Shown: in pieces, positions 37,503 through 54,427 of the stretch
Numbering within the stretch: position 1 is the stretch's first letter
Layout: every line of letters starts with the position of its first letter
Origin: an uncultured Gammaproteobacteria bacterium
GTDB taxonomy: Bacteria; Pseudomonadota; Gammaproteobacteria; Legionellales; Legionellaceae
Reading direction: 5' to 3'
NCBI GenBank assembly: GCA_963803545.1
Contig: CAWDMX010000001.1
Coordinates: forward strand, 753,013-817,012
Length of the DNA stretch: 64,000 nucleotides
Made by a program: the position numbers and the translations under genes
Notes under the pieces: generated by a model
Databases searched by the model: none
What the model was told of the DNA's origin: nothing
What the model saw: the letters and a program-made list of their open reading frames with translations, nothing else

Positions 37503-38810
37503 TCATGAAGTAGACGTCATCCGCGCCTTAAAAGATTTCATCCCTGTGAAGATTGGATCTGCAATCTTTTCTGGGAAGTGGTTTGGTAACTCTGTTGAGA
37601 CCTCATCAATAGCAGAATCGATACGCTCGATAACTTGCTCAAAAATCTTAACAGCTTTTATTCTCGAGTATTGAACGTATTTTGCTGTTTCAATAAAATG
37701 TCTTTTTTGAATACCGTCAATCTTGTAATGACTATTTTTACCGTATAAAGCCATTGCCATTTTCAATTTTTTAAACGGTAGCTGTTTTTGTTTAATTAGG
37801 GGATAGGCTGAGATCATGTCGTATAGTGGGGTGAGCTTATAACCACCTTGGGGTTGTAGACTTACACTGAAATTCTTGGCATGCGCATCAATAGCACCAA
37901 GGCACCAGTTAACGACCTGAGCCCTGAAAAAATCATCTCGGTCTTTTTGAGGCTGTTGCGAACCATTAAGTAGCTGCATAACTTCTTTAATACCCGGCCC
38001 ACCATCAGACTGATATTTTAAATTGGGTGAGTATCCCAATGACTGGCATAGATCTTCCTGTGGCAATCTAAGAATATCCTGATGATCGCGACTCCATTTT
38101 CTATCAAATCTTTCAACAACTAATACTTTTACATCTTCGAATTGTAAGATTTTAGATTTTGCAACATTTAAACCAAATTTGCTGGCCAGTCGTAAACAGA
38201 GATGTTCATTTTCACAACTTTCACTTAAATCAATCCCTTGATGAGATAAATATCCAATAGGTAGTTTGAATATGTGGGTTGTTGGTGTAGGTCCAAATGG
38301 TTTATGCCATTCATTTTGATAATATAGGAAAGCGGTTTTTTCCTGAGCACCGGCTATCGAGATTCTAAACTCATCATCCTCTTTATTCATTCCCAGTGGT
38401 GAGGTTTGGTAAGAGCGTAAAGTACGAGCTATCTCGGCTTCACTAACAATTTTGCTTTTAATTTTCAGATGTTGATTTTGAGGAATATCTTCAACAATTT
38501 GTATCGCACCAACACAATCACTGCCAATTAGAGCCAATAGATCAAACGGTTGTGATGAACTTGCTTGAAAACGAGCTTGAATTCTGGCTCTTATCTGCGG
38601 ATTATCAGGAAGTAAGTTATCAAAAAAATTATAAACAACTTTTCCTGAGAACTTTTGCGTTACTAATGGTAGCGATAAAGAAACTGGGCGTGAATACGGC
38701 TTGGAAATCCAGTCAGCGACGTAGCAAAAACTCAAACCACCTGCATTATCTTGGGTAAGCTCCCCAACGAGCTCATTATTCATCAATATGTATAATTTAC
38801 GCATTACCAT
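37503..38810 (-). CDS. hipA: HipA-family serine/threonine kinase toxin
   Basis: Motifs are LYILMNNELVGELTQD...FFDNLLPDN..IRARI...DLLALIGSDCVGAI...ISIAGAQEKTA. At 435 aa it is full length. Confidence 0.85.
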   Translation of the reverse strand: MVMRKLYILMNNELVGELTQDNAGGLSFCYVADWISKPYSRPVSLSLPLVTQKFSGKVVYNFFDNLLPDNPQIRARIQARFQASSSQPFDLLALIGSDCVGAIQIVEDIPQNQHLKIKSKIVSEAEIARTLRSYQTSPLGMNKEDDEFRISIAGAQEKTAFLYYQNEWHKPFGPTPTTHIFKLPIGYLSHQGIDLSESCENEHLCLRLASKFGLNVAKSKILQFEDVKVLVVERFDRKWSRDHQDILRLPQEDLCQSLGYSPNLKYQSDGGPGIKEVMQLLNGSQQPQKDRDDFFRAQVVNWCLGAIDAHAKNFSVSLQPQGGYKLTPLYDMISAYPLIKQKQLPFKKLKMAMALYGKNSHYKIDGIQKRHFIETAKYVQYSRIKAVKIFEQVIERIDSAIDEVSTELPNHFPEKIADPIFTGMKSFKARMTSTS

Positions 38811-39043
38811 TCTATATCTTCATGAGTTTCCTGTTCTTTTTCAACAAGATTTATATTTAGATTAAGAGCAGACAGGATTCTAAATAAAGTATCAATTCGG
38901 CTATTATCAGGGCTATTCTCAAACTTTGAGATGGTATCTTGTTTTAAACCGACTAAATCTGCAACTTCAGATTGACTCATTTTGAGTTGCTTACGCTGGT
39001 CATTTAAATATAAGGCTAAATCTTTTGTTGAGTTGATGATCAT
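38804..39043 (-). CDS. hipB: HipB-like XRE-family antitoxin
   Basis: The HTH is LKMSQSEVADLVGLKQDTISKFEN. The stop overlaps the hipA start (ATGGTAATG). The start is taken at MIINSTK. Confidence 0.75.
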   Translation of the reverse strand: MIINSTKDLALYLNDQRKQLKMSQSEVADLVGLKQDTISKFENSPDNSRIDTLFRILSALNLNINLVEKEQETHEDIEW

Positions 39044-39083
39044 TATTTTCCTTTTCTTACCCCCAGTCGCCAATATTATTAAA

Positions 39084-39133
39084 TTTACCCTCATTTGCGG
39101 GTAAATTCAAATATATTTCCATTTGCGGGTAAA
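39084..39133. promoter_or_regulatory. candidate HipB operator(s)
   Basis: A palindrome TTTACCC-N8-GGGTAAA lies at 39084-39105. A second copy of CATTTGCGGGTAAA lies at 39120-39133. Both are 40-90 bp upstream of hipB. Confidence 0.4.
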
Positions 39134-39402
39134 AAAGTTGTTGCTATGCCGCACCTAAATTTTTATTTGATTTCCTAACAGCTCAAGTTGAGCTTAAGTA
39201 TCATGCACCCCAAAAACTAGACCAGCAAAATCTAAAAATTTAGGAGATACTCGCCTTTGTTCGGAGGTTACTATGCCAAAGAACAAAAAAGGGTCATCGG
39301 CTGCTAAATTTGAAATTGCATTACAAGCAATAAAAAATGAAACACCGTTGAATGAGATAAGTAAAAATTATGCGGTATACCCTACACGAATGAATATTAG
39401 GA

Positions 39403-40092
39403 TTATCCAGCATTAAGAGTACGGAAATTATTGGTTAACAAAGAATCAAGCTCTGTTTTGTATTGCTGAATATTTTCAAAAAAATCCAATGTTGTTTGCT
39501 TGAAAACGTTGAACTTCTCATAATATTTATTGTAGAGCACTTTCTTTTTCATAAATTTCCAAAGCCGTTCAATCAAGTTCAAATTTGGTGAGTATGGAGG
39601 TAAAAACACGAGCTGAATTTTGGATTTTTCTAAAAATTGACCGACTAATTTTGAGCGGTAATAGCGTGCGTTATCACCGATCACATAAATAATAATTGCT
39701 AAGGGATAAGCTGATTCAACCTGCTCTAAAAGTGCTATTGTTGACTGAGCATTTATGCGCTCATCTTCACGGGTTATTACAACGTGTGTATCTGCATCCA
39801 ATGCGCCATTGATATTGATGCGCTGACGTCCTGTATTACTTTTGATAATGTTGTCTTGTCCTTTCTTAATCCAGCCATAGGCCAACATGGTGTTATGTTG
39901 TGGATGCACCCCATCCATATACAAAACAGGGTCGTTTGAGCCTTTATGCTCTCGAAGAGCCGTAAGCTGTTTTAGAAACTGTTCCTGCTTCTCTTTATCA
40001 GCTTTTGCAGGAACCAGCTTCGATTTTTTATAAGTAAATTTTAGTCGGTGTAACAAATCGGTCATGCCGCTAACTGAATATAAAAACTCATA
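39403..40092 (-). pseudogene. IS630-family transposase, DDE half only
   Basis: YSVSGMTDLLHRLKFTYKK...YMDGVHPQH...GDNARYY...PPYSPNLNLIERLWKFMKK is present. The N-terminal third is cut off by the element starting at 40095. Confidence 0.75.
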
Positions 40093-40094
40093 TA

Positions 40095-41027
40095 TAGTTA
40101 ATTGAATTTTAAATGACCGATAAATTGTATATAATTGTCGTTTTTAACTTCGGTCATATTTATGGGACATTCAACAGATTTAAGAGGATCAGTTTTACGC
40201 TTCATTGATTCAGGAAACTCAATTAAGGCAGCATGTAAATTATTTAGTGTCAGTCGTTCATCAATCCAACGCTGGAGAAGCAGGTTAAGTAAATCAGGGA
40301 CAATAGAGCCCAAGCTACGAATAAAATCTCCCTATAAAGTGGATGCATCAGCTTTAAAGGCTTACATTTCCGCCCACCCTGATGCTTACCTCAATGAAAT
40401 TGCTGCGCACTTCAATGTCACTGCTTCAGGGATATCAAAAGCATTGCGTCGTCTGAAAATCACACGCAAAAAAAAACTTCGCTCTATGCTGAAAGAGATG
40501 AATCCAGACGACAAGAATTTGTAGAAATTATTTCACAATACCCATCAGAAAAACTGGTATACATTGATGAGTCTGGAATTGATAAGTTTATGTCTCGAGA
40601 ATAGGGGTGGGCCTTAAAAGGACAAAAAGTGATTGGTGAAATCTCTGGTAGACGCTATGCCAGGGAAAGCTTTGTGGCTGGGTTGAATGGGGGTCGGCTG
40701 ATTGCGCCGTTATGTTACACAGGTACCTGTGACACAATATTGTTTAATTTTTGGTTGGCTAATTTTTTATTACCCACATTAAACCAAGGTCACATTCTGG
40801 TGATGGACAACGCAACATTTCATAAATCAGAAGAAACGCGTCTACTTATCAATAATGCAGGATGTGAGCTACTTTTTTTGCCACCGTACTCGCCAGACCT
40901 TAATCCCATTGAAAAATGTTGGGCGAATCTCAAGAGTAAAATCAAAAAAGTTATTGCTCAATTTTCATCCCTGTCAGAGGCTGTTGATTATGCGTTTCAA
41001 ATAGATCAATTAAAATTCAAGTGACTG
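40095..41027 (+). mobile_element. Tc1/IS630-like element, copy A (inactivated)
   Basis: IRs are TAGTTAATTGAATTTT and the complement of AAAATTCAAGTGACTG, flanked by TA on both sides. Two frames (40135-40524 and 40629-41024) join across an A9 run at 40468-40476. There is an in-frame TAG at 40602-40604. Confidence 0.8.
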
Positions 41028-41081
41028 TAATACCCATTATTGATCTCTAACAGGCTCACGGATGAATTCTTAGGTTTTTCA

Positions 41082-41640
41082 TCAATACAAGATCTTAAAA
41101 CTTCGCTTTTTCCGCTTAGCTTTTAAAAATTTTTTGTTAAGTTTCCAAAATATCGTTTTACCATAAGCGGCTGTTGAATCATACTCATGATCGTATGCGC
41201 CTAAATCCGTTTCTTTTCGCTTGTGTGGTGGTTCATTAATAGAAAATAAATTATGGCTTGGGCTGGTAAATTCAAATCCATGTCGGTATTTGTAATGATG
41301 TTTTCCGCTTGCTTTTAAATCATACCCATCCCAAAAGCATCCTCCGTTAGCATAATCAAAACCATTATTCAGCGCGTTTCTGGCTGCCCGATAAGGCTTC
41401 TCAAAATTTTCTTCTATATCCGAGCACATCAGGTTTCTATAGCGATGGTTCCATCAGAAGTCACATAGGAAAACGAAGGAAATGCTTTAATTAATAAAGC
41501 CACTGATGATTTTCGAGCCGCATTCCTTCTTCTAATAACCGCATAGGCCATACCTGCCATCTCCTCATAATTATTCATAGTCGAGGATTCGCCATAAGCA
41601 ATGGCGGTTAGAAACTCAAACTCAAGTCTTAAAGCGTTTT
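41082..41640 (-). pseudogene. frameshifted gene; N-terminal part resembles SleB-type cell-wall hydrolase (weak)
   Basis: The minus strand reads TAIAYGESSTMNNYEEMAGMAYAVIRRRNAARKSS in one frame. The 115-aa ORF (GGCFWDGYDLK...) is in another. Confidence 0.3.
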
Positions 41641-41768
41641 ATGAGTATTTAGTTCTTTCTGGAAAAAAGAAGATGGTTGCGCTTACAGCATTGATGCGAA
41701 AAATCATTGTAATTGCCAACGCGCGATTAAGAGATGCAGATCTAACAAGATGTTTGGGAGTTAATTAA
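41640..41768 (+). pseudogene. 3' fragment of an IS110-family transposase
   Basis: SGKKKMVALTALMRKIIVIANARLRD resembles the conserved IS110 C terminus. Nothing upstream matches. Confidence 0.35.
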
Positions 41769-42152
41769 AATTATTATTCAGAAATAGTTGATTACCCTAC
41801 AACCACGAGAGGCTACACACAACAGTGGGAGATATATCCCCTGTGGCCTATGAAAAAGAATAATAAAAGTGCCCAAATTTGGTTGACCAGAACAATATTG
41901 ATTGTTACCGACAGTTGCTCTCAAAATAAATGCGTCCTAGGAATGCAAAACAAAGGTGGGGCAGCTAAAACCTAGTAATGACGGGGCGTCCCACTTATCC
42001 CCTATGTCCCGCCCATTTTTTATAAGCGTGCAACACGCATTAAATAAAATTAAATAAACATAATCTACGATGATTTCCGCAACGCAATATACTATAATTT
42101 ATGCAACATGATATACTATGATTTCAACAATAGTATTAATAGAGAAAAGATA

Positions 42153-43667
42153 ATGAAACCATCAGAAAAACTGGCTCAATCCTTAGAAATTTTACGAGAA
42201 ATACAGCAAAAAGGTAAATATACCATTCAATCAAAAAATATCAGCAGAACACATCGCGAACGATTGGTAGAAAATGGCTTTTTGGAAGAAGCTATCAAAG
42301 GTTGGTACATACCTGTCAAACCAGATGAGCAAAAAGGAGATAGTACCCCATGGTATACTACCTTTTGGAATTTTTGTGCCACCTATTTGAATGAACGATT
42401 TGATGATAATTGGTGTCTTTCTCCTGAACAATCCCTACTTATCCATGCAGAAAACTGGACTGTCCCTCAACAGTTGATAGTGCGAAGTCCAAGTGGAACA
42501 AACCGTAATATGGAATTGCCACATAACACTTCAATGTTTCAAGTACGCTATAAAATGCCAACACCAGAAGATATCGAGGTAAAACAAGATTTAAGATTAT
42601 ATGCACTGGCACCGGCTCTGATCTATTGCTCTCCCAAATTCTTCTCACAATATCCAACTGAGGCCAGGGCTATTTTATCTATGTTTAATAACGCCTCTGA
42701 CATACTTCATTATCTATTGGATGAAGGGCGTTCATGGATAGCTGGAAGACTAAGTGGTGCGTTTAGGAATATTGGAAAAACACAAATAGCAGGTGATATT
42801 AAAATGACCATGGAAAGTGCTGGGTATCAAGTACGCGAGGAAGACCCTTTCTGTACAGTTGCACCCATAGATTTCTCAAAGGGTAATAAACCACCTTACC
42901 GTAGTCGTTTAGAAGTGATGTGGCATGAAATGCGACAGCCTATCATCGATTATTTCCCAAAACCAAAGCACAAGATTACTAATACTGAAAAATATATAGA
43001 ATCCGTTGAAGAAGGCTACACCAATGATGCTTATCATTCTTTGTCGATTGAAGGCTATCAGGTCAGCGCGGAACTCATTGAAAAAGTACGCTCCGGCCAA
43101 TGGGGTCCTGATGCATTTGAAGATGATAGGAGTCAAGGAAATGCACTAGCTGCAAGAGGATATTGGCAAGCTTTCCAAGCCGTTGAAAAAAGTCTGGTTA
43201 AAGTACTGGAAGGAGAAAATCCGGGAAATATCATACAAAAAGATCATGGCAGCTGGTATCGAGAACTTTTTCAGCCCAGTGTTGTAGCCGGCCTATTAAA
43301 ACCAACCGATCTTGCTGGATATAGAAGAAACCCCGTATACATTCGACAATCAAAACATATTCCGGCCAGAGCTCAAATTGTCAGTGATTTAATGGAAGAA
43401 TTTTTTCAGTTAGTAAGTCAAGAGAATGATCCTGCTGTTCGAATAGTACTTGGTCATTTCTTTTTTGTATATATCCACCCATACCCTGATGGAAATGGTC
43501 GAATTGGGCGCTTTCTAATGAATGTGATGATGGCTGCTGGTCATTATCCTTGGACTATTATTCCAGTTGATAGACGAAATGAATATATGGAAGCTTTAGA
43601 GCAAGCCAGTGTTCAACAGAATATTATTCCATTCTGTAATTTTGTGGCTAGTTGCGTGGATGGTTGA
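42153..43667 (+). CDS. Fic-domain protein (class II, internal inhibitory motif)
   Basis: The Fic motif HPYPDGNGRIGR lies at 43476-43511. An upstream SLSIEG fits the (S/T)xxxE(G/N) inhibitory helix motif. The start is taken at MKPSEKL. Confidence 0.85.
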   Translation: MKPSEKLAQSLEILREIQQKGKYTIQSKNISRTHRERLVENGFLEEAIKGWYIPVKPDEQKGDSTPWYTTFWNFCATYLNERFDDNWCLSPEQSLLIHAENWTVPQQLIVRSPSGTNRNMELPHNTSMFQVRYKMPTPEDIEVKQDLRLYALAPALIYCSPKFFSQYPTEARAILSMFNNASDILHYLLDEGRSWIAGRLSGAFRNIGKTQIAGDIKMTMESAGYQVREEDPFCTVAPIDFSKGNKPPYRSRLEVMWHEMRQPIIDYFPKPKHKITNTEKYIESVEEGYTNDAYHSLSIEGYQVSAELIEKVRSGQWGPDAFEDDRSQGNALAARGYWQAFQAVEKSLVKVLEGENPGNIIQKDHGSWYRELFQPSVVAGLLKPTDLAGYRRNPVYIRQSKHIPARAQIVSDLMEEFFQLVSQENDPAVRIVLGHFFFVYIHPYPDGNGRIGRFLMNVMMAAGHYPWTIIPVDRRNEYMEALEQASVQQNIIPFCNFVASCVDG

Positions 43668-44272: not shown

Positions 44273-44384
44273 TGTAAATCAGCATGCAAAAATGACCCCT
44301 TTAGAGGGGAAATCAGCGTCGAAAATTGACCCCCTAAATAATTGTTAAACTAACCGTTGGGATCACTCAACGGAGATGAGGGGG

Positions 44385-45896
44385 ATGTTAATTGTGGAAA
44401 CGATCGCAAAAATACGCACACGTTATCATGTTCAGAAACAAGGCATTAAGCAAATAAGCCGAGAGCTGAATTTATCGAGGAATACAGTAAGAAAGGTACT
44501 CCGTGAAGGACAAACTGCACATGTCTACAAACCAAGGCAAGTGGTCGCCCCAAGGCTTGAGGATTATAAGGAGCAATTGCAGTCCTGGCTTGAATTGGAC
44601 AATCAATTACCAAAGAAACAGAGATGCAGTGCCATGCGCTTGCACCAGCGTTTGCGGGAGTTGGGATATTCAGGCGCTTATGACAGCGTACAGCGCTATG
44701 TAAAGCAATGGATGCTGGATGATGGCAAGGTGGGCAAGGCATTTATTCCACTTTACTTTTCGCCAGGGGAAGCTTATCAGTTTGACTGGAGCGAAGAAGT
44801 TGTAGAGCTTGGTGGCGTTGCTCAGAAAATAAAGGTCGCACAGTTTCGTTTGTGTTACAGCCGCATGCTATTTGTGGCAGCGTTTCCGCGAGAAACACAG
44901 GAAATGCTGTTTGCAGCGCACGCACAGGCTTTTTCATTTTTTGGTGGAATCCCGCGTCGCGGAATTTATGACAACATGAAAACGGCAGTTGACGTGGTTT
45001 TTACTGGCAAGGAAAGAATGTTCAACAACCGATTTATCCAGATGTTAAGCCATTATCTGGTAGAACCCACAGCCTGTAGTCCCGCTGCTGGCTGGGAAAA
45101 GGGGCAAGTTGAAAATCAGGTTGGCAATGTTCGCGATTGGGTTTTTGTGCCCCGGCTAAAATTTAAGGACTTCAACGAACTGAACCGGCACCTGACGGAG
45201 CGCTGCCTGGAGATTTCCAAAACGCGTGCACATCCTGAAGCGAAAGACACTCGTATTTTTGAGATTTTTGAGCAGGAAGGACAGGTGCTTCGACAGATGG
45301 ATGCGCCATTTGACGGCTATATGGAGAAGAGCTGCCGGGTTAGCAGCACCTGTCTTGTTAACTTTGACCGAAACCGCTATAGCGTTGAATGTGCCTATGC
45401 ATACCAACCGGTCAGCGTGCGGGCTTATTCTGACAAAATTATAGTGAATTCAAAAGGCCGTGTCATCGCCGAACATACACGTCATTTTGGTCGGGATAAA
45501 ACCATTTATAATCCCTTGCATTACCTGCCACTGCTTGAGCAAAAGCCTGGAGCTATTCGCAATGGTGCGCCATTCCACGAATGGGTATTGCCCGATGGTC
45601 TTAAGAAAGTCAGGGAAATCCTGATGAAGGACAAAGATGGCGACAAAGCCGTTGTGTCAATACTTCTTGCGATTTCCACCCACGGTCTTGAAGCCGTTGA
45701 TGCTGCCTGCAAAACAGCCATTTCAGAGGCGCTCATAGGAGCTGATTATATTTTGAATCATTTAAACCGCCAGAAAGACAGGCCAACACCTTCTGAAATA
45801 ACGACGCCAGACTGGTTAAAACTGGCCAAAGAACCGATGCCCGATATGGTTCGTTACAATCAGTTGCTCAGAGGGGTTCGCCATGCCATACACTGA
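44385..45896 (+). CDS. istA: IS21 family transposase IstA
   Basis: Motifs are [39 protein letters not shown] and YQFDWSEE...[10 protein letters not shown]. Confidence 0.9.
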
Positions 45897-46611
45897 ACTG
45901 TTGTTAATGTTACGCAACCTGAAGCTTTATGGGATGGAAGAAGCGTTTACAGAAGCAAGCGAGCAACCAGGATTCAGTCAGCTGACCAAAGAGTCTCTTT
46001 TGTCAAATCTGGTTCGTGCTGAAATTGCCGACAGGCAGGCTCGCTCCATTAACTATCAAATGGGTACTGCCAAATTCCCTGTATACCGTGATTTGGACCG
46101 TTTTGATTTTGCATCGTCTGAAGTCAATGAAGAACAAATAAGAACGCTGCATGAAGGCAGTTTTATTCCTGCTAATCGTAATGTTATTTTTGTGGGCGGT
46201 ACTGGCAGTGGAAAAACTCATCTGGCGATTGCCATTGCCAGTCAGGCCATTAAAAACAGGTACAAGGCGAGATTTTTCAACGTAGTTGACCTTGTTAACA
46301 GACTCGAGGCCGAAAAGTTGGCCGGCAATGCAGGAAAACTCGCCGAGCGTTTGAAAATGGTTGATGTGGTTGTCCTTGATGAGCTGGGTTACCTGCCCTT
46401 CTCTCAGGCTGGAGGCGCATTGTTATTCCATCTTATCAGCAAACTGTATGAGAAAGTTTCACTCATTATTACCACCAACCTCAGTTTCAGTGAATGGGCA
46501 CAGGTCTTTGTTGACAAAAAAATGACAACCGCCATGCTCGACAGAGTTACACATCATTGCGACATCATTGAAACCGGAAACGAAAGTTACCGCTTTAAAA
46601 CAAGAAATTAA
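45883..46611 (+). CDS. istB: IS21 helper ATPase IstB
   Basis: The Walker A is [11 protein letters not shown] and the Walker B is VVVLDELGY. The gene overlaps the istA stop. Confidence 0.9.
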
Positions 46612-46932
46612 TTGCTTCTATATTTTACATTGTGACTATCACAGGGGGGGGGCAATTTTCGACGCTGACAGGGGGTCAATTTTGGATGCTGATTGACAAT
46701 TATTACTCTCCTCGAATTTAAATATTTAGTAAATACATGCAATTAAGAAATAGTGTCTTTTTTTTTAGCAAAAATGAGATTGACTTTTCTTTTGTCCTTT
46801 AGTAGCTTGCCCTCTGTAGAGTCTTTCTAAGGCTATCTACTAAAAAGAGGTTTATTGCAGGCTATTTTTAGGCCTCGATAAATTTTGACCACCTAGCTAG
46901 CTTTGTTAGTTGGGTTTTACTGTGGATTAATA

Positions 46933-47854
46933 TAGTGAATTAAAATTTAAACGATCCCCTGAAAAGCATGATCAATGGCCTGAGCTAATGTATCAAAATT
47001 AGCAATTTCATTCTTAATTTTCTTTTTTAAATTTGCCCAGCATTTTTCAATAGGATTTAAATCTGGTGAATAAGGGGGACGAAAGATCAAATCACAACCT
47101 GCGCCATTGATAATAGCAGCCGTTTCTGGGGATTTATGAAAAGCAGCATTATCCATTATAATGGTCTTACCACTTCCAATTTCAGGTAAGAGGAAATTAC
47201 TGAGCCAGAAGTTGAATAAAACACCATCCATAGTGCCTTGATAGCAAATTGGGGCAACCAGAGTTTTATGGATTAACCCCGCTACAAAACTTTCTCTAGC
47301 GAAGCGTTTACCAGACCTCTCACCAATAACTGTTTGCCCTCTCTCACTCCATGCGTGCTCCCTGGATACAAAGCTATCTATGCCTGACTCATCAACGTAT
47401 ACGATACTTTCAGGGTTCAAATGCTCTATGATTTCAATATAATGTTCGCGTTTATTAGGGCACCGCTCCTTGTAGAGCGAAGTCTTTTTTTTCGAGTTAT
47501 TTTTAACCGCTTCAATGCTGCATGAATAGCAGGGGCGGTAACATTAAAGTGAGAGGCTATCTCATTTAAAAACGAATCAGGATGCTCTTTAATAAAGGCT
47601 TTTAACTTATCTGAATCTATTTTGTATGGGTTGTGTGGACGACCAGCACCTACCAGTTGTCCTGTTTGATGTCTCAATCTCTTCCATTGCTTAATTGTCG
47701 TTGTACCAACTGAAAATAATGTACTCGTAGATTCGATCGTAGCTCCTGAATCTATATGGAAAAGTACTTTTTCCCTAAAATCTAATGAATAAGTCATAGT
47801 CTAAAAGCACTAATTATAACAAACATTTAAGACTTTTTAAATTTTAATTAACTA
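46933..47854 (-). mobile_element. Tc1/IS630-like element, copy B (apparently functional)
   Basis: IRs are TAGTGAATTAAAATTT (46933-46948) and the complement of AAATTTTAATTAACTA (47839-47854). A TA duplication is present on both sides. Confidence 0.85.
46947..47797 (-). CDS. IS630-like transposase encoded in two frames joined at an A AAA AAG site
   Basis: ORF1 is 47426-47797 (HTH; LKRLKITRKK). ORF2 is 46947-47420 (DDE; DNAAFHKS...PPYSPDLNPIEKCW). The ORF2 frame is open back through the A8 run at 47485-47492, so a -1 shift gives one product. Confidence 0.75.
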
Positions 47855-47869
47855 TAAAGAAGTTATGTT

Positions 47870-47968
47870 ATGAAAACAACTACAAAAACTAAAACCCTAA
47901 CTGTTTCTAAAATTTCTGCTGCAATTAAAATTGCCTTAAAAGCTTCTTTAATTACAGCTGTTCCTTAG
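47870..47968 (+). CDS. candidate precursor peptide (32 aa)
   Basis: The peptide is MKTTTKTKTLTVSKISAAIKIALKASLITAVP. A purine-rich AAAGAAG lies 7 nt upstream. It is the first ORF of the co-oriented cluster and is followed by a long hairpin. There is no homology evidence. Confidence 0.4.
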   Translation: MKTTTKTKTLTVSKISAAIKIALKASLITAVP

Positions 47969-47977
47969 TCTTTTTTT

Positions 47978-48029
47978 CAGGCGTAATATCACTCAAATTT
48001 ATTTTTTATTTGAGTAATATTATTGCCTG
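47978..48029 (+). promoter_or_regulatory. long imperfect hairpin between the small ORF and the E1-like gene
   Basis: The left arm CAGGCGTAATATCACTCAAAT (47978-47998) pairs with ATTTGAGTAATATTATTGCCTG (48008-48029), giving about 19 pairs with two small bulges. No U-tract follows. Confidence 0.5.
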
Positions 48030-48054
48030 AATTAATCGTAATAATGGTTTTTGT

Positions 48055-49119
48055 ATGACACAGATAAAATTGAATGAAAATTTGTATTTGCAACCTCATG
48101 AAAATGGAATAATTATTCATCTCCCTGATGATCAATCACTTAAAATTGAAGAAAAAGAATTTTTTATCGATTTACTTTATGAGATTAAAAAATCTGGAAT
48201 ACAGGGTAAAGAAGAAATTTATAAACAACTTTATTTTAAACATGATGTATCTGAAGACGAATTTAATGAGGTCTTTCAGATTTTAATTGATAATAATATT
48301 GTAAAATCTAAAACCGAATTCGCGCATACACTGTCGGATAAAGAATTAATAAAATTTGATAGACAGATCAAAAGTTTTGCTACTTTAAAAGGCAATAATA
48401 TTGATGATGCCATCCATTTTCAGGAAAAAATAAAGAACGCTCATGTGGGGATTTTAGGTGTTGGTGGTGTTGGTTCTTACGTAGCATATGGATTGGCTTC
48501 CATGGGTATTGGAAAACTAACACTTATTGATCATGATCACATTGAATTAAGCAATACCGCCAGACAAATGCTTTACAATGAAGATGATATTGGCAAACAA
48601 AAACTTGATGTTGCTGAGAAAAAGCTAAAACTAGTTAACCCAGATGCTGAGATTACTACAGTTAATCAAAGAGTAACTCGCCCCCAAGATTTAGAACTTT
48701 ATTTAGGCAGCCTTGATATTTTAATTTTGTGTGCAGATATACCAAGAGGCAAAATTGTATATGTCGTCGATGAAGCCTGCCAAAATAAACAGTGTCCATT
48801 TATTTTTGGACTACCTTCTTTTAACCAAATAACTTGTGGTCCGCTAATCATCCCTAACAAGACAAGAAGTTATAAAGAAATTTTCCCTAATCAATCTGAA
48901 ACACATGAAACAAATATTTCAGACTCAGAAAAAGAGAAAACTGATTTAATCAATTCTGGTTTAGTTGCAACCATTATTGATCCATACAATGCTATTGCTG
49001 GGAAACTTGTTGCTCTGGAAGTAATAAAATTTTTAACAAATTTTTTACCTTGCCAGCTAATTGATCGCGTGTTTAATTTCGATACCAATACATTAAATTC
49101 CTGTATTACTGAGGTGTAG
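48055..49119 (+). CDS. ThiF/MccB/PaaA-type E1-like adenylating enzyme with N-terminal ~110-aa extension
   Basis: Motifs are HVGILGVGGVGSYVAYGLASMGIGKLTLIDHDHIELSNTARQ and DILILCADIP. The N-terminal part is helix-rich (FFIDLLYEIKKSG...FQILIDNNIV). No CxxC zinc motifs were seen. Confidence 0.85.
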   Translation: MTQIKLNENLYLQPHENGIIIHLPDDQSLKIEEKEFFIDLLYEIKKSGIQGKEEIYKQLYFKHDVSEDEFNEVFQILIDNNIVKSKTEFAHTLSDKELIKFDRQIKSFATLKGNNIDDAIHFQEKIKNAHVGILGVGGVGSYVAYGLASMGIGKLTLIDHDHIELSNTARQMLYNEDDIGKQKLDVAEKKLKLVNPDAEITTVNQRVTRPQDLELYLGSLDILILCADIPRGKIVYVVDEACQNKQCPFIFGLPSFNQITCGPLIIPNKTRSYKEIFPNQSETHETNISDSEKEKTDLINSGLVATIIDPYNAIAGKLVALEVIKFLTNFLPCQLIDRVFNFDTNTLNSCITEV

Positions 49120-49120
49120 T

Positions 49121-50158
49121 TTGTCTTTTTCTTCTATTAAATTAACTGAACTTGTCAAACAAACAGGGAGTACACCTGTTAATTTATTTAATTTACTCTC
49201 TCTAGTGGAGCATAAAACGAATGTTCCACTGAGTACTGATTGGCAGATTTTTAAAAAAAATGACGACACTATTCTCTTGGAAAAAATATTTAAAGAGTAT
49301 GGCCCTAATAGTAACTTACAGAATGTATTTGACTATTTATTAGAGTGTGAATCTACATACTCAAACCTTCTATCCAGTTATTTAACACAATATCGAGATC
49401 AGAAGAAAAGTAAGAACGATCTTTTTCACAAGTATGGGTATAATTTAAAAAATTTAAAACAAGAGCCATGTCTTCATAGAGAGCAAGAGCAAGAACTTAT
49501 AAAAATTTGTCTTAAAAGAAATTATAAAAATAATATAATGCTCATCGGTGAATCTGGCGTAGGAAAAACCTTTCTTATTGCATCGATTGCTCATATTCTA
49601 AACTTAGACATTTACTACATAGACATTAGCAGCATATTATCTGGCTCTAAATATCGCGGCGAATTTGAAAAGAAATTTCACGATATTCTTAATGAGGCTT
49701 TAACTCACAGGAAAATTTTATTTTTTGATGAAGCTCATACGATACTAAATACCGGAAATTCTGACGGAGGAATATCTGGTGCTGATATATTAAAGCCTTA
49801 TCTTATGCTTGCAGACTTTCAAATGATAGGAGCAACGACAATCGATGAAGCAGCTATATTTGTTAACGATAAAGCTTTTGAAAGACGTTTTAATTTTATT
49901 CACCTTGAAGAGCTAACTGTAGAAAATACAAAAGAGATCATAAAAAGTAAGCATCAACAAATCAGTGATTGGGATCCTCTCCTTATAGATAAAATATTTG
50001 TATATTTAGGTAACACATTCAAGAGCAGAAACTACCCAGATAAAGCACTTGATTTTTTTGATTTTTATTTTTCTGGTGAAAAATTATCTTCGTTTAAAAT
50101 TGATGAAATGGAAAAAGTATTCAGCCTTTTTAATCGCATGAATAATATGTCAGTATAA
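49121..50158 (+). CDS. Clp-type AAA+ protein with N-domain-like region and D1 module only
   Basis: Motifs are NIMLIGESGVGKTF (Walker A at 49547-49570), ILFFDEAHTIL, GATTIDE and FERRFNFIHLEE, matching ClpA/B D1. The TTG start is 1 nt after the upstream stop. There is no D2 module. Confidence 0.8.
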   Translation: MSFSSIKLTELVKQTGSTPVNLFNLLSLVEHKTNVPLSTDWQIFKKNDDTILLEKIFKEYGPNSNLQNVFDYLLECESTYSNLLSSYLTQYRDQKKSKNDLFHKYGYNLKNLKQEPCLHREQEQELIKICLKRNYKNNIMLIGESGVGKTFLIASIAHILNLDIYYIDISSILSGSKYRGEFEKKFHDILNEALTHRKILFFDEAHTILNTGNSDGGISGADILKPYLMLADFQMIGATTIDEAAIFVNDKAFERRFNFIHLEELTVENTKEIIKSKHQQISDWDPLLIDKIFVYLGNTFKSRNYPDKALDFFDFYFSGEKLSSFKIDEMEKVFSLFNRMNNMSV

Positions 50159-50170
50159 GTTGGTTTATAA

Positions 50171-51394
50171 ATGCAATTATTCTACAGACTATTAATTTAT
50201 ACTATATTATTTTCAAGCATCAGAATGCTCGTGGGAGGCTACTCTTCTTTATATTTAACCAATCACGGGTTATCTATTGCGGATATCTCCTTTTTAAAAG
50301 CGTTTCAAGGAATAGTAATTGTACTTATTCAAGTTCCGGTAGGGGTGATCATTGATAGATGCAATAATAGGTTTCCTTTCATACTGATTTCAATTTTTCT
50401 TGCAGCCATTTGGATGTTTTTAACTGCCATAGGTAATACAACGTCTATTTTCTTTGCAGCAGAATTTTTTAATGGTTTGTCTTTGGCAATTTTTAATGCA
50501 GTGATGTTGCCTATCTTAGTTGAAACTTATTCTTATGAGACAGGAAAGGATGATTATAACTACACATTAGGCAAGTTTTTCAAATATCAAAACTTATTAA
50601 TGGTAGTGTCTGTACTTTTAGGCAGTGTTTTTGTAACGGTGGAGTCCAGATACGTCTGGTTTGTTGCCTCTTCTATTTTAACAATAATGGGGGTATTTTC
50701 TCTTTTAGCTAATGATTTAAAGAAATTTAATATCACTTCATCAAAAAAACCACTACTAAATAAAGCGAGGTTACACTTCAAGAATTTATTTAATGTATTG
50801 AAAGTTGAAAACGCCATTATTTTATTTATTGCTAATATCTCGCTGGTTACTGTGTTTCAAATTTTAGCTCAATTTTGGCAGGTAATCATTTATGATTATT
50901 TAGGTGAACATACTTCTAATGCAATAGTATATGGACTTATATTTGCCGTTATTTTAGTATTTCAAGCACTAGGATCATTCTTTGCTGAAAAGAAAAACTC
51001 ACTAAAAATAAGCTTGTTTTTTATGGCTTTTTTCGTTGCTACTACATGCTATCTAATGGGATATAACGGAAATGAAATCTATAAAATAATCCCTATTATC
51101 CTGTTTCTTTTTTGTTTTATTTTATTTAAATATCCTTCAATTATTATAAGCGCATTACTGCATAAAAATATCAGCAATGACATTAGGGCAACTTTTGATT
51201 CACTAATTAGTACAATTTCAATGTTGGTATCAATCGGCACATTTTATATGATTGGAATTTTACTCAATAACTTTGGAAATAAAGTAATTATTTTATCTTT
51301 GACATTTTTAATGATGACAAGTTTTTTTAGCACATTTCTATACGTGATTAAAACAAGATATAGCCTAAGAACTAGTTTAGTAACGAGTTCTTAG
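50171..51394 (+). CDS. MFS transporter (about 12 TM)
   Basis: The protein is hydrophobic throughout, with a central loop KKFNITSSKKPLLNKARLHFKN separating two six-helix halves. Confidence 0.8.
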   Translation: MQLFYRLLIYTILFSSIRMLVGGYSSLYLTNHGLSIADISFLKAFQGIVIVLIQVPVGVIIDRCNNRFPFILISIFLAAIWMFLTAIGNTTSIFFAAEFFNGLSLAIFNAVMLPILVETYSYETGKDDYNYTLGKFFKYQNLLMVVSVLLGSVFVTVESRYVWFVASSILTIMGVFSLLANDLKKFNITSSKKPLLNKARLHFKNLFNVLKVENAIILFIANISLVTVFQILAQFWQVIIYDYLGEHTSNAIVYGLIFAVILVFQALGSFFAEKKNSLKISLFFMAFFVATTCYLMGYNGNEIYKIIPIILFLFCFILFKYPSIIISALLHKNISNDIRATFDSLISTISMLVSIGTFYMIGILLNNFGNKVIILSLTFLMMTSFFSTFLYVIKTRYSLRTSLVTSS

Positions 51395-52443
51395 ATAACC
51401 ATTCCTTCTAATAAACTAACTGTCTCTTCCATTGGATTAATCTCGGCTAAACAGCTATAAGGCATTATCCACATTGGATCAGAGTGTCCAAAGTCCATAT
51501 TAACTACTACAGAAACTTGGAGTAATTGATATTCTTCAAATACGTCTAAAATGGCTTTTCCATAGTCTTTAAATTGCGGGACTAAGATATGCTGACCACC
51601 TGGCTTACTAAATAAAATGCCCCCTATCTTAGCCAGTATTCCTTGAGCCGCTAAGTTTCGTAAGAAACGTTTTAAAAATAATGGGGCTACACCTTCTTCT
51701 GAAGTTTCTAAGAAAAGAATACAGCCAGCCCAAACATCTAATGAAGGCCAAATTTCGGTGGCATTGATAAACTGTAATACTTCAACACAGCCGCCTAATA
51801 AACGTCCTTGAACTATTTTGTCAGTACATCCAATAAATTCCCATTTCATTTCGGGCTCAAGCTTTCTTTGGATCACTTGATTGGAAGGTTTTTGCCAATC
51901 TAAATATTCCTTAGTCCATCCCTCACTTGCTTTGGGAATGGGACCTATTTTATCCGTTGAAAAAAAACTCTGTTTTATCGCACTTACTGTGTACTCATGC
52001 ATTGCTGCATTTTCTGCGAAACCTGTCATTACCGAAGTACCATAAAAGCTTGCTATGCCCGCTTTTAAGCACATAAAATGCAAAACAGTACTGTCTGAAT
52101 AACCTAAAACTATTTTTGGGTTTTTACGAATGATTTCAAAGTCAATGTAAGGTAATAACCTTATGGCATCCTCTCCGCCAATCGTTGAGAAAATTCCTTT
52201 GATAGATGGGTCTAAAAACGCTTGCATTAAATCTTCTGCTCTAGCCTTGGGATTTCGGTATACCCAATCAGCATCTTTTAATGCATGGGGCATTTCAACC
52301 ACTTCCAATTCAAAAACAGATTCGATTCGTTGTTTACCTGCTTCATAACGATAAGGAAAAGCACCAGGGCCGCCCCATGAAGCACTGATCACTGCAATTT
52401 TATCTCCAGGATTCAATTTTTGAGGGAGAATTAATTGCTTCAT
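51391..52443 (-). CDS. S66 peptidase (LD-carboxypeptidase LdcA / MccF family)
   Basis: Motifs are LNPGDKIAVISASWG, IVLGYSDSTVLH (nucleophile Ser motif) and DFGHSDPMWIMP (His motif). The stop overlaps the MFS stop by 4 nt. Confidence 0.85.
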   Translation of the reverse strand: MKQLILPQKLNPGDKIAVISASWGGPGAFPYRYEAGKQRIESVFELEVVEMPHALKDADWVYRNPKARAEDLMQAFLDPSIKGIFSTIGGEDAIRLLPYIDFEIIRKNPKIVLGYSDSTVLHFMCLKAGIASFYGTSVMTGFAENAAMHEYTVSAIKQSFFSTDKIGPIPKASEGWTKEYLDWQKPSNQVIQRKLEPEMKWEFIGCTDKIVQGRLLGGCVEVLQFINATEIWPSLDVWAGCILFLETSEEGVAPLFLKRFLRNLAAQGILAKIGGILFSKPGGQHILVPQFKDYGKAILDVFEEYQLLQVSVVVNMDFGHSDPMWIMPYSCLAEINPMEETVSLLEGMVI

Positions 52444-52687
52444 CTATTTTATCCTTTAATAAACATAATAAAAACCAGTGAAGATATTAAAAAGCATAAT
52501 AAATAATACCTATCGCTAGTAATGTTGATATAGAGACACATGTCCCCATTCGAATTTGTTGTACATTCCCTTCTGTGAACATAAAGCTCATGCTTCTTAA
52601 AAAAGCAATAATTAACTTAAATGGGCCTCGAGAAACAAAATTAATTAAAGGATAAAGGAGAAAAGCAACAACAATGGAAAGCAGATC

Positions 52688-53885
52688 GGTAATCGTCCCT
52701 AAAAATAATTGATGCCAAAAGTAGAATTTTCTCGTACCCTTTACGCAGGAGATTCTGCATGAAAAAATCAAAATTTAGTGACAGTCAAATTATGTCGATC
52801 ATCAAGCAAAGTGAAGCATGCGTACCTGTTCCAGAACTTTGTCGTGAACATGGCATGAGTTCAGCAACGTTTTATAAATGGCGTGCAAAATATGGTGGCC
52901 TGGACTTGCCGATGATGACCCGACTAAAAGAGCTCGAGTCTGAAAATGCCCGTTTGAAGAAGATGTACGCTGAAGAGCGCCTAAAATCTGAGATTCTTCG
53001 CGAGGTGCTTGAAAAAAAGTAGTTAAGCCATCCAGTCGAAAGCAGCTTGCACAGAAAGCCGTGCAGGAAAAATTTATCTCCGTACGGATGGCCTGTTGTT
53101 TATTTAGCATTAGTGAAACTTGCTATCGTTACCAATTGAAGCTGAATGATGAAAATGCTCATATTGCAGACTGGTTGTTGCGTTTGACTAAAAATAATCG
53201 CAATTGGGGTTTTGGCCTTTGTTTTTTATATTTGCGTAACGTTAAAGGTTACAAATGGAACCATAAGCGTGTTTATCGTATTTATAGAGAGCTCGAGCTG
53301 AATTTAAGAATCAAACCCAAAAAGCGGTTAATTAGGGAAAAGCCAGAGGCGCTAACGGTTCCTCAAGCAATAAACGAATGCTGGTCAATGGATTTTATGC
53401 ATGATCAGTTACAAAACGGGCGTAGTTATCGTTTATTTAACGTGATTGATGACTTCAATCGAGAAGGCCTTACCATTGAAGCTGACTTCTCTTTGCCTGC
53501 TGAGCGTGTGATTAGGGCGCTTGATCAGGTTATTGAGTGGCGTGGTAAGCCTTTTCAGATACGTTGTGATAATGGACCTGAATATATCAGTCACTTGCTT
53601 ACACAATGGGCTGAAAAACACAAAATAACGCTATTGTTTATTCAGCCAGGCAACCCACAACAAAATGCCTATGTTGAGCGTTATAACAGAACCGTACGAT
53701 ATGATTGGTTAAACCAGTATTTATTTAGTACGATCGAGGAAGTTCAGAATATGGCCACAAAATGGTTGTGGTCTTATAACAACGAACGGCCTAACATGGC
53801 AATTGGAGGTATACCGCCCAGACAAAAACTGAAATTAGTAGCTTAGTTTCTACTTTTAGCGTCAGTTAAAAATGGGGGGATTACC
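52688..53885 (+). mobile_element. IS3-family insertion sequence, intact
   Basis: IRs of about 40 bp are GGTAATCGTCCCTAAAAATAATTGATGCCAAAAGTAGAA versus the complement of TTCTACTTTTAGCGTCAGTTAAAAATGGGGGGATTACC. A GATC direct repeat lies at 52684-52687 and 53886-53889. Confidence 0.85.
52759..53846 (+). CDS. IS3 transposase OrfA/OrfAB
   Basis: OrfA is 52759-53022 (HTH plus leucine zipper). The slippery A AAA AAG lies at 53013-53019. The -1 frame continues [23 protein letters not shown] into OrfB (53061-53846; DFMHD...DNGPEY...[10 protein letters not shown]). Confidence 0.9.
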
Positions 53886-54351
53886 GATCGTTTCTAGTTT
53901 TACCATACTCTCTTATAAAGTCAGATAAGACGCTTTGCTGTAAAGGGTGGTTAAAATATGTTTCTGAGGTATATAAGAACATATAGGCTAAGCTTAAAAG
54001 GGCATACAACATAAGTATTGTAATAAAGTAATAAGCTCCATTAGATAAAAAAATTCTTTCATTAATCTGTTGGGCTAAAGTTTTTTTAGTTGAGATTGCC
54101 AGATTAACTTCAGATCGAACGTGCAATGTTTGATGCAAGTAATCTTTAGAAAGTTCCTTGGTAGGCCACATACTATCAACCCATTTAGTGAAAAGTACAC
54201 CAATAACACTTACTAAGATACTTTGAAAAAGGGGCGACATGATGAGAATATTTCCTTACAAATGCTAAAGCGTCTTACTCCATCTTTCTACATTGCTTCT
54301 ACATGAGAATTTCAGAACTTCGGTGTTATTCGCCACAACCCTTATGTGGTG

Positions 54352-54427
54352 TGGCTCCCCGGGACGGGCTCGAACCGCCGACCTAATGATTAACAGTCAT
54401 CCGCTCTACCGACTGAGCTACCGGGGA
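54352..54427 (-). tRNA. tRNA-Asn (GTT)
   Basis: The reverse complement folds as a cloverleaf: acceptor TCCCCGG/CCGGGGA, D arm TAGCTCAGTCGGTAGAGC, anticodon loop CTGTTAA, T arm GGTTCGAGCCC, and an encoded CCA. Confidence 0.95.

Follow-up and report, generated by a model that had tools for sequence, protein, structure and literature searches.

The DNA considered here is a 64,000-nucleotide stretch (the window, whose numbering is used for all positions in it) from an uncultured member of the Legionellaceae, and the subject is a group of five genes between positions 47870 and 52443. Four of these lie on the plus strand: a 32-codon gene for a candidate precursor peptide (47870-47968), a gene for a 354-residue E1-like adenylating enzyme of the MccB/PaaA type (48055-49119), one, with a TTG start, for a 345-residue AAA+ ATPase that has a single ring of the D1 type of ClpA/ClpB/ClpC (49121-50158), and one for a 407-residue transporter of the major facilitator superfamily (MFS), presumed to be an exporter (50171-51394). 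The fifth, on the minus strand, encodes a 350-residue S66 serine peptidase of the MccF-like branch (51391-52443). An earlier note on this DNA had described the same five open reading frames (ORFs), and when these were re-derived from the window sequence, their positions and spacings were reproduced exactly, with 1 nt between the E1 and AAA+ genes, 12 nt between the AAA+ gene and the pump, and a convergent overlap of 4 nt between the pump and the peptidase. With moderate confidence, the cluster is read here as a horizontally acquired operon for a peptide made by the ribosome and modified post-translationally (RiPP) of an uncharacterized class, in which adenylation of the peptide C-terminus goes together with an obligate AAA+ partner.

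Is this arrangement more than a chance neighborhood? About 33 full-length relatives of the E1-like protein were found in a collection of 5.8 billion proteins, and related loci were recovered from Legionella pneumophila, other Legionella, metagenome-assembled genomes of Pseudomonadota, Pseudolactococcus reticulitermitis, Streptococcus suis, human-gut metagenomes and one high-GC contig (loci and proteins are distinguished below by L and P numbers). Scanning genome contigs with the full E1 alignment was swamped by ordinary ThiF and MoeB proteins, the Pseudolactococcus locus being the sole true member among the matches listed; further members were found when metagenomes were re-scanned with the family-specific motifs ADTPRG and DPYNAIA. 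The order precursor, E1, AAA+, MFS is kept in 18 of the 20 distinct related loci, which come from several phyla, and because it recurs in this way the arrangement is not due to chance. Nearly all of those 18 loci have core genes that overlap or stand no more than 12 nt apart. Among 1.84 billion cluster representatives, a profile search returned 1,536 proteins that resemble E1s with a RiPP recognition element (RRE) at E <= 1e-30. Among the top 150 of these, both family motifs occur in 9 and one motif in a further 24, and on these counts the AAA-linked E1 family is small and patchy.

The window peptide, MKTTTKTKTLTVSKISAAIKIALKASLITAVP, is 32 residues long, rich in Lys and Thr, and has a net charge of +6. 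It contains no Asp, Glu, Asn, Cys or Trp, and its sole carboxylate is that of the C-terminal Pro, at the end of the sequence ...TAVP; the earlier remark that the peptide has neither a terminal Asn nor a Glu-Glu-Asn core is borne out by this composition. A related short ORF lies immediately 5' of the E1 gene in nearly every locus recovered, and such precursor-like ORFs are seen in Legionella, other Pseudomonadota, S. suis, Pseudolactococcus and gut-metagenome loci. The predicted products include MKTSTKTKTLTISKVSNATKIATKASLITAVP in L. pneumophila, MKTSVQTKTLTISAISGAVKLALNATLSSVQP in L009, MKTLVKSKILTITRSAINTSLVISGSQA in L007, MMKTNVKTSSKVKAIIIASLFCN in L098, MMKTNIKTNSQIKAIITASLLTA in L099, MKTSHIVKVKVSAPIAVTTSTKIAAMASASER in Pseudolactococcus, MKTITQIKVAKPVVASTKTVVAAISYVADR in L115 and MVKVKSLAKAKSSVSARIAARSIIVKA in S. 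suis. Among five Legionella-type loci, the DNA differences in this ORF fall mainly at third codon positions, and dN/dS values of 0.11-0.48 indicate purifying selection. Conservation spans the whole peptide, including the N-terminal MKT, and a GGAG ribosome-binding site is kept ahead of the ORF in the relatives. Conservation of the small ORF in related loci, which the earlier note had singled out for checking, thus extends from Legionella to the Firmicutes.

Downstream of the precursor gene, the gap before the E1 gene holds a stem-loop on the plus strand (47976-48031) with a minimum free energy of -25.7 kcal/mol (z = -5.7; 0 of 200 shuffled sequences fold as well). The hairpin is found at the same position in four relatives, with 4 compensatory pairs. 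In microcin C operons, a terminator between mccA and mccB keeps the precursor transcript in excess (PMC6385645), and by analogy the stem-loop here is probably a partial terminator or a transcript stabilizer. A search by eye of 47969-48054 for an alternative tiny ORF ending in Asn turned up just a 4-codon MVFV ORF. Because it has conserved relatives, third-position changes, dN/dS values typical of selection and a conserved hairpin behind it, the 32-codon ORF is a real, selected gene, and it is the best candidate for the substrate of the E1. Could it serve only as a leader peptide, a Thr/Lys-codon attenuator, with the E1 and AAA+ proteins acting elsewhere, for example in ubiquitin-like or anti-phage conjugation? 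The Thr-rich N-terminus and the strong hairpin after the ORF would suit such a role, but purifying selection acts over the whole length of the peptide, and does so also in the Firmicute versions, which are not Thr-rich. This idea, like the companion notion of an accidental juxtaposition with a housekeeping LdcA (see below), is scarcely credible.

The E1-like protein matches Pfam ThiF (PF00899) over residues 115-348 (E = 6.5e-48), so that about 110 N-terminal residues are left unassigned, just as the earlier note had it. Among solved structures in the PDB, phmmer places MccB first (2.8e-29, aligned from residue 65), followed by PaaA (4e-23) and by ThiF and MoeB (1e-18 to 1e-19). An AlphaFold2 model based on 18 homologues (predicted local distance difference test, pLDDT, 91) was matched by Foldseek to full-length MccB (3h5n/6om4) with a template modeling (TM) score of 0.80 over ~355 columns and to PaaA with 0.73, whereas ThiF and MoeB superpose on the adenylation core only (TM ~0.6). 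Because the model superposes on full-length MccB in this way, the N-terminal extension is assigned, at the level of the predicted fold, to the peptide-clamp (RRE) domain of RiPP-type E1s. All ThiF and MoeB equivalog models of NCBIfam score far under their cut-offs. The protein consequently does not belong inside the MoeB/ThiF activators, an alternative that the earlier note had raised; MccB and PaaA are closer by sequence as well as by fold. Nor was any MoaD/ThiS-like gene found in the related loci, and whereas sulfur-carrier activation employs a beta-grasp carrier (ThiS/MoaD) ending in Gly-Gly and an E1 that has no peptide clamp, the candidate substrate here is a 32-residue peptide ending in Pro.

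Since the residues for nucleotide binding and catalysis do not vary within the family (G135, G137, G138 and G140 of the GxGxxG motif, together with D161, N167, R170, Q171, K183 and D228, in 18 homologues), the enzyme should be an active adenylase and not a docking scaffold. The first Zn-binding CxxC of MccB (GCYEC) is replaced by RSYKE in the window protein; the E1s P0030-P0033 form an outgroup that bears the Zn site. The E1s of anti-phage systems, CBASS Cap2 and Bil/Bub, were considered and rejected: the PADLOC 'E1-E2' matches span only ~100 residues of the core, and no E2, JAB or ubiquitin-like (Ubl) partner genes are present beside the E1. The partial match to Cap2-type models is what a conjugation system would have in its favor, and against it stand the limited span of that match, the absence of these partners and the presence of a peptide-clamp domain.

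In 18 of the 20 distinct loci of sufficient extent, an ATPase gene of this family directly follows the E1 gene. The two genes mostly overlap or nearly abut, and both proteins have diverged in step. The exceptions are L118, a locus truncated by an IS66 insertion sequence (IS), and L112, a distant, plasmid-borne E1. Because it stands beside the E1 with this regularity, the AAA+ protein is a core component of the system and not an occasional accessory. The second of the exceptions (L112, 78-4517) encodes an E1 of 36% identity on a relaxase-bearing contig; an ABC exporter is encoded upstream, an AAA gene is lacking, and here the pairing of E1 with AAA reaches its outer limit. No fusion of the two proteins was found among the longer matches of the profile search, where the only fusion was P0381 (669 aa), an S-adenosylmethionine (SAM)-dependent methyltransferase joined to an RRE-E1. 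This protein echoes the separate methyltransferase of the Arg-ending subfamily described below, as well as the fusions of MccB to a methyltransferase in cytidine-type microcin C. A further observation concerns a distant ThiF protein (30% identity) in another operon (L011, 4501-11934), which is also paired with a P-loop ATPase; the gene order there is a 64-aa ORF, a B12-radical SAM protein, SBP_bac_5, ThiF, a 509-aa ABC-like ATPase and an MFS transporter.

What kind of ATPase is this? Pfam assigns it to AAA (PF00004), NCBIfam aligns it to the D1 part of ClpA/ClpB/TssH, and in the PDB it matches the D1 modules of ClpC1, ClpB and ClpA at 1e-30 to 1e-34 (ClpC1, E = 1.4e-34), with an identity to ClpC1 D1 of 32-35%. 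Invariant in 15 homologues are Walker A, the pore loop Y178-R179-G180 (KYRGEFE), Walker B with D203/E204, sensor-1 T239/T240, the Arg fingers R255/R256 and the small-domain R303..PDK, a set of motifs that would be expected of an active, substrate-threading ring. The structural model (pLDDT 82.6) aligns to Clp D1 rings over residues ~100-345 only. The first 100 residues have no Pfam match to Clp_N (PF02861), and the profile-profile comparison (hhalign) gave a probability of 0.2%, so that Clp_N was rejected as the identity of this region. Of the earlier description as a Clp-type N+D1 protein, the D1 part therefore stands, and the N-domain part does not: the protein consists of D1 and a family-specific, all-helical N-domain (residues ~1-100). 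It shares with the Hsp100 proteins ClpA, ClpB and ClpC the D1 module with its characteristic motifs, but differs from them in being a single ring that lacks D2 and the middle domain and, because the D2 ring is absent, the ClpP-docking loop, and in having its gene always next to an E1.

The pump matches Pfam MFS_1 (E = 7.9e-17), which is a family-level match and agrees with the earlier identification of an MFS pump behind the AAA+ gene; wherever a related locus reaches far enough, an MFS gene lies 3' of the AAA gene. The peptidase contains both Pfam domains, Peptidase_S66 and S66C, and keeps the Ser-Glu-His motifs (GYSD 114, ETSE 246, FGHS 318) that it shares with MccF and BA3275. In comparison with solved structures, it is closest to BA3275 of Bacillus anthracis (1e-100), followed by the MccF proteins of that species (5e-30) and of Escherichia coli (9e-25), and is remote from LdcA (PA5198, 1.6e-4); the NCBIfam model for LdcA gives 44.7 bits where its cut-off is 378. 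What had been called an LdcA/MccF-type peptidase can therefore be placed on the MccF-like branch, although its nearest relative is the uncharacterized BA3275 and not a validated MccF. Its distance from LdcA and its location on an IS-flanked island speak against a housekeeping enzyme of the LdcA kind, a possibility that the earlier note had kept in view, and this distance, together with synteny across phyla, speaks against an accidental juxtaposition of the genes.

The convergent position of the S66 gene is common to all Legionella-type loci, and the gene travels with the cluster. In L009, the S66 protein is only 36% identical to the window copy, yet it belongs to the same BA3275-like subfamily, and an independent recruitment there was therefore rejected. 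The S66 protein is specific to the Legionella-type subfamily, however, and it is the AAA+ protein, not S66, that is the universal partner of the E1. By analogy with MccF, the peptidase is presumed to be a self-immunity or a product-processing enzyme. Legionella nautarum has a stand-alone S66 gene (L092, 7001-8002), at least 90% identical to the window copy and located beside a Tn5 transposase remnant, with no E1, AAA or MFS gene nearby. This looks like resistance without production; stand-alone copies are common among MccF homologues.

What do the other subfamilies carry in place of S66? The Legionella type combines a terminal Pro in the precursor with the convergent S66. In L007, the precursor ends in Ala and a HIT gene overlaps the stop codon of the MFS gene; in L098 and L103, it ends in Asn and the slot holds a GNAT acetyltransferase of the Acetyltransf_3 type; and L005, L111, L115 and L119, with a terminal Arg or Phe, have a methyltransferase (the terminus is Arg in three of these four methyltransferase-linked loci and Phe in the fourth). 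The Arg-ending L115 and L117 have a further GNAT gene upstream of the precursor gene, L107 has an ATP-grasp ligase and a U32 peptidase, and L100, ending in Gly, has what is possibly a secreted phosphoesterase (a weak assignment). Across the family, the terminal residue can thus be Pro, Ala, Arg, Asn, Gly or Phe, but it is constant inside subfamilies while neighboring residues vary, and it co-varies with the accessory enzyme. A fixed terminal residue matched to an enzyme resembles, by analogy, the one-residue 'core' logic of microcin C. Enzymes of the S66 (MccF), HIT (MccH) and RimL-type GNAT (the C-domain of MccE) families detoxify processed microcin C (PMC8323819, PMC7157772). Because relatives swap S66 for HIT, GNAT or other enzymes, the analogy points to toxicity inside cells, as in a Trojan-horse antibiotic, either of the compound that is exported or of a fragment processed from it.

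Some of the loci just mentioned have surroundings of their own. In L115 (1-4563) and L117 (1-6600), the immediate neighbor is a second, YcaO/nitroreductase (azoline-type) cluster, which has MFS and GNAT genes of its own, and the region is located on a conjugative element, as seen from the pilin genes of a type IV secretion system. In L107 (375-4060), the genes upstream make up a complete set of the agr type, with AgrB, a histidine kinase of the GHKL type and a LytTR regulator. The ATP-grasp enzyme downstream, next to the U32 peptidase, is of the L-amino-acid-ligase type, and L107 stands apart from the other loci in that its candidate precursor (…EQSYEMITP) is acidic.

How, then, does the system compare with microcin C and pantocin A, whose gene layouts the earlier note had recognized here? 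Several features are shared with microcin C. There is a precursor gene followed by a hairpin, a peptide-clamp E1 for which MccB is the best match, an MFS exporter and a convergent S66 gene of the MccF branch; relatives have HIT or GNAT in the same slot; and the cluster is mobile and patchily distributed. The differences lie in the terminal Pro, in the lost Zn site and in the AAA+ protein as an invariant extra core gene, and there are no MccD or MccE genes. The lack of these, and of PaaB, had been pointed out earlier and is confirmed by the domain content of the five genes, which carry only ThiF, AAA, MFS_1 and S66 domains. Might the product nevertheless be a true microcin C-type peptidyl-nucleotide, with the N-P bond made as it is by MccB? 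That MccB is the closest solved relative, that MFS and MccF-like genes are present, and that the precursors of two gut-metagenome relatives do end in Asn (...FCN in L098/L103 and ...VCN in L104) can be cited for it. However, the terminal residue is Pro in the window and in all Legionella-type precursors (7 of 7 Pseudomonadota Pro-type loci, with no Asn near the C-terminus), and the succinimide route to the N-P bond requires the carboxamide of Asn (PMC6495379, PMC6385645). Because of this requirement, the chemistry of MccB is excluded at the window locus, and a peptidyl-nucleotide made in that way is very improbable.

Pantocin A (paaP-paaA-paaB-paaC) offers a second comparison, with a precursor of ~30 aa, an RRE-E1 and an MFS exporter, all of which are shared. 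Its chemistry is likewise excluded, because it needs a Glu-Glu-Asn core and the window peptide has none; the window cluster differs further in having no PaaB oxygenase and in possessing the AAA+ and S66 genes. A looser version of the same logic, as in pantocin and the pearlins, would make the peptide a scaffold: the E1 would ligate or transform a group at the C-terminus, S66 would act as a carboxypeptidase to release a small molecule, the MFS pump would export it, and the scaffold would be recycled. PaaA is indeed the second-closest solved relative of the E1, and of its 30-aa precursor pantocin A retains only a small fragment (PMC12250964). S66 enzymes are carboxypeptidases, EnfB can amidate C-termini with free amines, and in some relatives the pump gene is followed by methyltransferase genes, or by those for a U32 peptidase and an ATP-grasp enzyme of the L-amino-acid-ligase type. 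On the other hand, the S66 gene is convergent, like an immunity gene, and is absent from most subfamilies, the minimal four-gene core offers no supplier of building blocks, and conservation extends over the entire peptide, including the N-terminal MKT. The scaffold route is therefore considered improbable.

This leaves adenylation of the C-terminus with a different outcome. E1/ThiF enzymes activate carboxylates, and adenylation is their universal first step; since the window peptide has only one carboxylate, its C-terminus is the expected site of E1 action. The same applies more widely, as Asp and Glu are absent from 10 of the 16 predicted precursors, so that the C-terminus is their only carboxylate. 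MccB can O-AMPylate C-termini other than Asn; the reactive peptidyl-AMP that results is trapped by nucleophiles (PMC11118369). The characterized non-Asn RRE-ThiF enzymes GrcB (thiolactone), EnfB (enterofaecin, an imide) and IndF (indolylamide) use an internal nucleophile for cyclization (PMC11256085, PMC12150305, PMC12250964). In these three systems, as proposed here, an RRE-ThiF enzyme works on a non-Asn C-terminal carboxylate; their clusters are often flanked by transposons, and Firmicute members lie near quorum-sensing regulators. The Cys, Trp or WWIII-type motifs of their precursors, however, are absent here, none of them has an AAA+ partner, and none has been reported from Legionella.

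It is possible, if on the whole unlikely, that the product is a macrocyclic signal or bacteriocin of this kind, in which a Ser/Thr hydroxyl or a Lys amine closes a lactone or lactam on the C-terminal adenylate. Such a product could be a pheromone for quorum sensing or a peptide that acts on membranes, and S66, HIT and GNAT would be incidental or would act on the ring. All characterized non-Asn RRE-ThiF RiPPs do cyclize through the C-terminal adenylate (PMC11256085, PMC12150305, PMC12250964), and most precursors have a Ser or Thr 4-7 residues from the end (ASLITAVP, ASLFCN, ASLLTA, GSVAER). Moreover, the Firmicute members adjoin Rgg or agr-type regulators, in one case a complete agr set. RiPP clusters often adjoin regulators of these types. 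The offset of the presumed nucleophile is not fixed, however; the L119 precursor (...KMAVGDQF) has no Ser or Thr in its last eight residues, the window peptide is without Cys or Trp, and a macrocycle leaves both the recurrent hydrolase/acetyltransferase slot and the AAA+ partner unexplained.

The RiPP operon with C-terminal adenylation and an obligate AAA+ partner would work as follows. The 32-residue Lys/Thr-rich peptide, whose conservation marks it as the likely substrate, would be bound by the N-terminal clamp of the E1, and the ThiF domain, with ATP, would O-adenylate its C-terminal Pro; the fold and the residues for this are seen in the E1, and the reaction is proposed on that basis. The activated C-terminus would then be converted to a stable modification other than the Asn-dependent phosphoramidate of microcin C. 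The translationally coupled AAA+ ring would most likely grip and thread the extended, basic, amphipathic peptide and in doing so feed the E1, strip the peptide from it or hand it to the pump. The MFS pump would export the product, and the convergent MccF-branch S66 peptidase would, by analogy, shield the producer by cutting off the C-terminal warhead. The adenylate may end up as a ring, an adduct or a nucleotide; the prediction is limited to C-terminal adenylation, export and protection of the producer. For the AAA+ protein, threading of the peptide is most plausibly its role, judging by its conserved motifs. An immunity function is less consistent with the data, since the AAA+ protein is invariant while the recognizable immunity-type genes vary.

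The literature provides little on such a combination. Two reviews of ThiF-like RiPP enzymes describe four chemistries (microcin C, pantocin, GRC and enterofaecin), and a genome-mining study of lactic acid bacteria adds six further precursor types, none of them with an AAA+ protein or with the present precursor family. The earlier note knew of no class member with a Clp-like ATPase. That the combination is uncharacterized holds true, but it has not gone wholly unnoticed, as some of the mcc-like clusters predicted in a 2021 review (PMC8323819) are said there, in one sentence, to have 'ClpA homologs' (Fig. 6 (8)). Those clusters may correspond to the Asn-ending gut members. Literature searches for a characterized E1+AAA RiPP yielded nothing beyond this sentence, and no paper was found in which Legionella is connected with a microcin-C-like system. 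The locus is thus an uncharacterized, AAA+-dependent variant of the MccB/PaaA-type RiPP clusters and not a categorically new system; the earlier suggestion of an undescribed E1-dependent peptide system is supported, with the corrections given above.

Where did the operon come from? The G+C content of the four co-oriented genes is ~30% and that of the S66 gene ~37%, compared with 40-46% in the flanking core genes (aspartate aminotransferase and uvrB). To the left of the cluster lie IS21 and IS630-like elements, and an IS3-type element closes it off to the right. The IS21-type element is complete (44311-46694, with istA/istB at 44376-46611 and inverted repeats of 22-25 nt), and the IS3-type element (52684-53889) has orfA/orfB at 52759-53846 and 16-nt inverted repeats. 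A tRNA-Asn gene (54352-54427, minus strand) adjoins the IS-rich island; tRNA genes are typical sites of island integration. The operon has probably been horizontally acquired and lies on a mobile, low-GC, IS-flanked island near tRNA-Asn. Other members of the family are also surrounded by mobile DNA, such as the conjugative element in L115 and the AbiE and IS neighbors in L. pneumophila. Farther to the left, the region 37503-43667 is a plasticity zone. A HipA-type kinase toxin is encoded there at 37503-38810, more fragments of IS630 lie at 39403-41024, and 42108-43667 codes for a 519-aa protein with a Fic domain, which could be a Legionella effector.

The IS630-like insertion (46931-47856, minus strand) forms the left border of the cluster and is part of its context, not of the system. 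It has 21-nt inverted repeats (46931-46951 and 47836-47856) flanked by TA at both ends, and its transposase is split over two ORFs (HTH_Tnp_IS630 and DDE_3). The right repeat ends 13 nt 5' of the ATG of the precursor gene, and homology to the relatives starts only ~13 nt upstream of this ATG, the upstream region of the relatives having been replaced. The insertion also weakens the Shine-Dalgarno site, which reads GAAG in the window and GGAG in the relatives, and no promoter match was found on the plus strand between the element and the ATG. All genes of the window operon are intact, and so is the L. pneumophila locus in L001 (7780-12430). In all L. pneumophila loci, a divergent gene lies upstream of the cluster (L001, 6422-7120); its 232-aa product weakly matches the family of N-terminal asparagine amidohydrolases. 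In the window, the IS630 element occupies this position.

Several points weigh against the proposed RiPP operon or parts of it. Both the product and the modification of the peptide are predictions. The IS630 copy separates the window operon from its native promoter, and the operon may be silent; with the native upstream region displaced, the ribosome-binding site weakened and no promoter match found, its expression is uncertain. Elsewhere in the family, decayed copies occur, with the E1 gene split in L. drancourtii and L118 likewise decayed. The detoxification analogy is loosened by the S66 protein, as BA3275, the closest solved relative, has no assigned substrate, and by the HIT protein of L007 (11236-11697), which has a non-canonical HLHAK in place of HxHxH. 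Specific similarity of the GNATs to MccE/RimL or of HIT to MccH was not found, the PDB and NCBIfam matches being generic; one GNAT may belong to the neighboring YcaO cluster; and each accessory type is limited to one or two subfamilies. As to the AAA+ protein, no precedent was found for an unfoldase role in RiPP biosynthesis, and the sentence in PMC8323819 treats ClpA homologs as possible immunity proteins.

A bolder and rather doubtful extension would have the MccB-type E1 and its obligatory partner, a dedicated single-ring AAA+ peptide translocase, install a C-terminal warhead on ~30-aa carriers, with the last residue setting the intracellular target and a subfamily-matched enzyme (S66, HIT or GNAT) taking care of detoxification. 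If true, this would be the first unfoldase-dependent RiPP pathway, and its products would be Trojan-horse inhibitors of different aminoacyl-tRNA synthetases or similar enzymes.

What does the finding mean for this family of clusters? ThiF-like enzymes are a fast-growing source of peptide chemistry, and every characterized case acts alone. An invariant E1-AAA+ pair would bring ATP-driven peptide handling into RiPP biosynthesis and would echo the pairing of E1 and unfoldase in ubiquitin-like systems. From the accessory genes there is a hint of a warhead that is toxic inside cells and differs from aspartyl-adenylate, and hence of a possible antibiotic scaffold with ready-made resistance markers. 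With four or five genes and a 32-aa peptide, the system is small and amenable to reconstitution in vitro. Pathogens and commensals carry the family, among them strains of L. pneumophila, S. suis and Firmicutes of the human gut, and competition between bacteria, or signaling, could be driven by it in these organisms.

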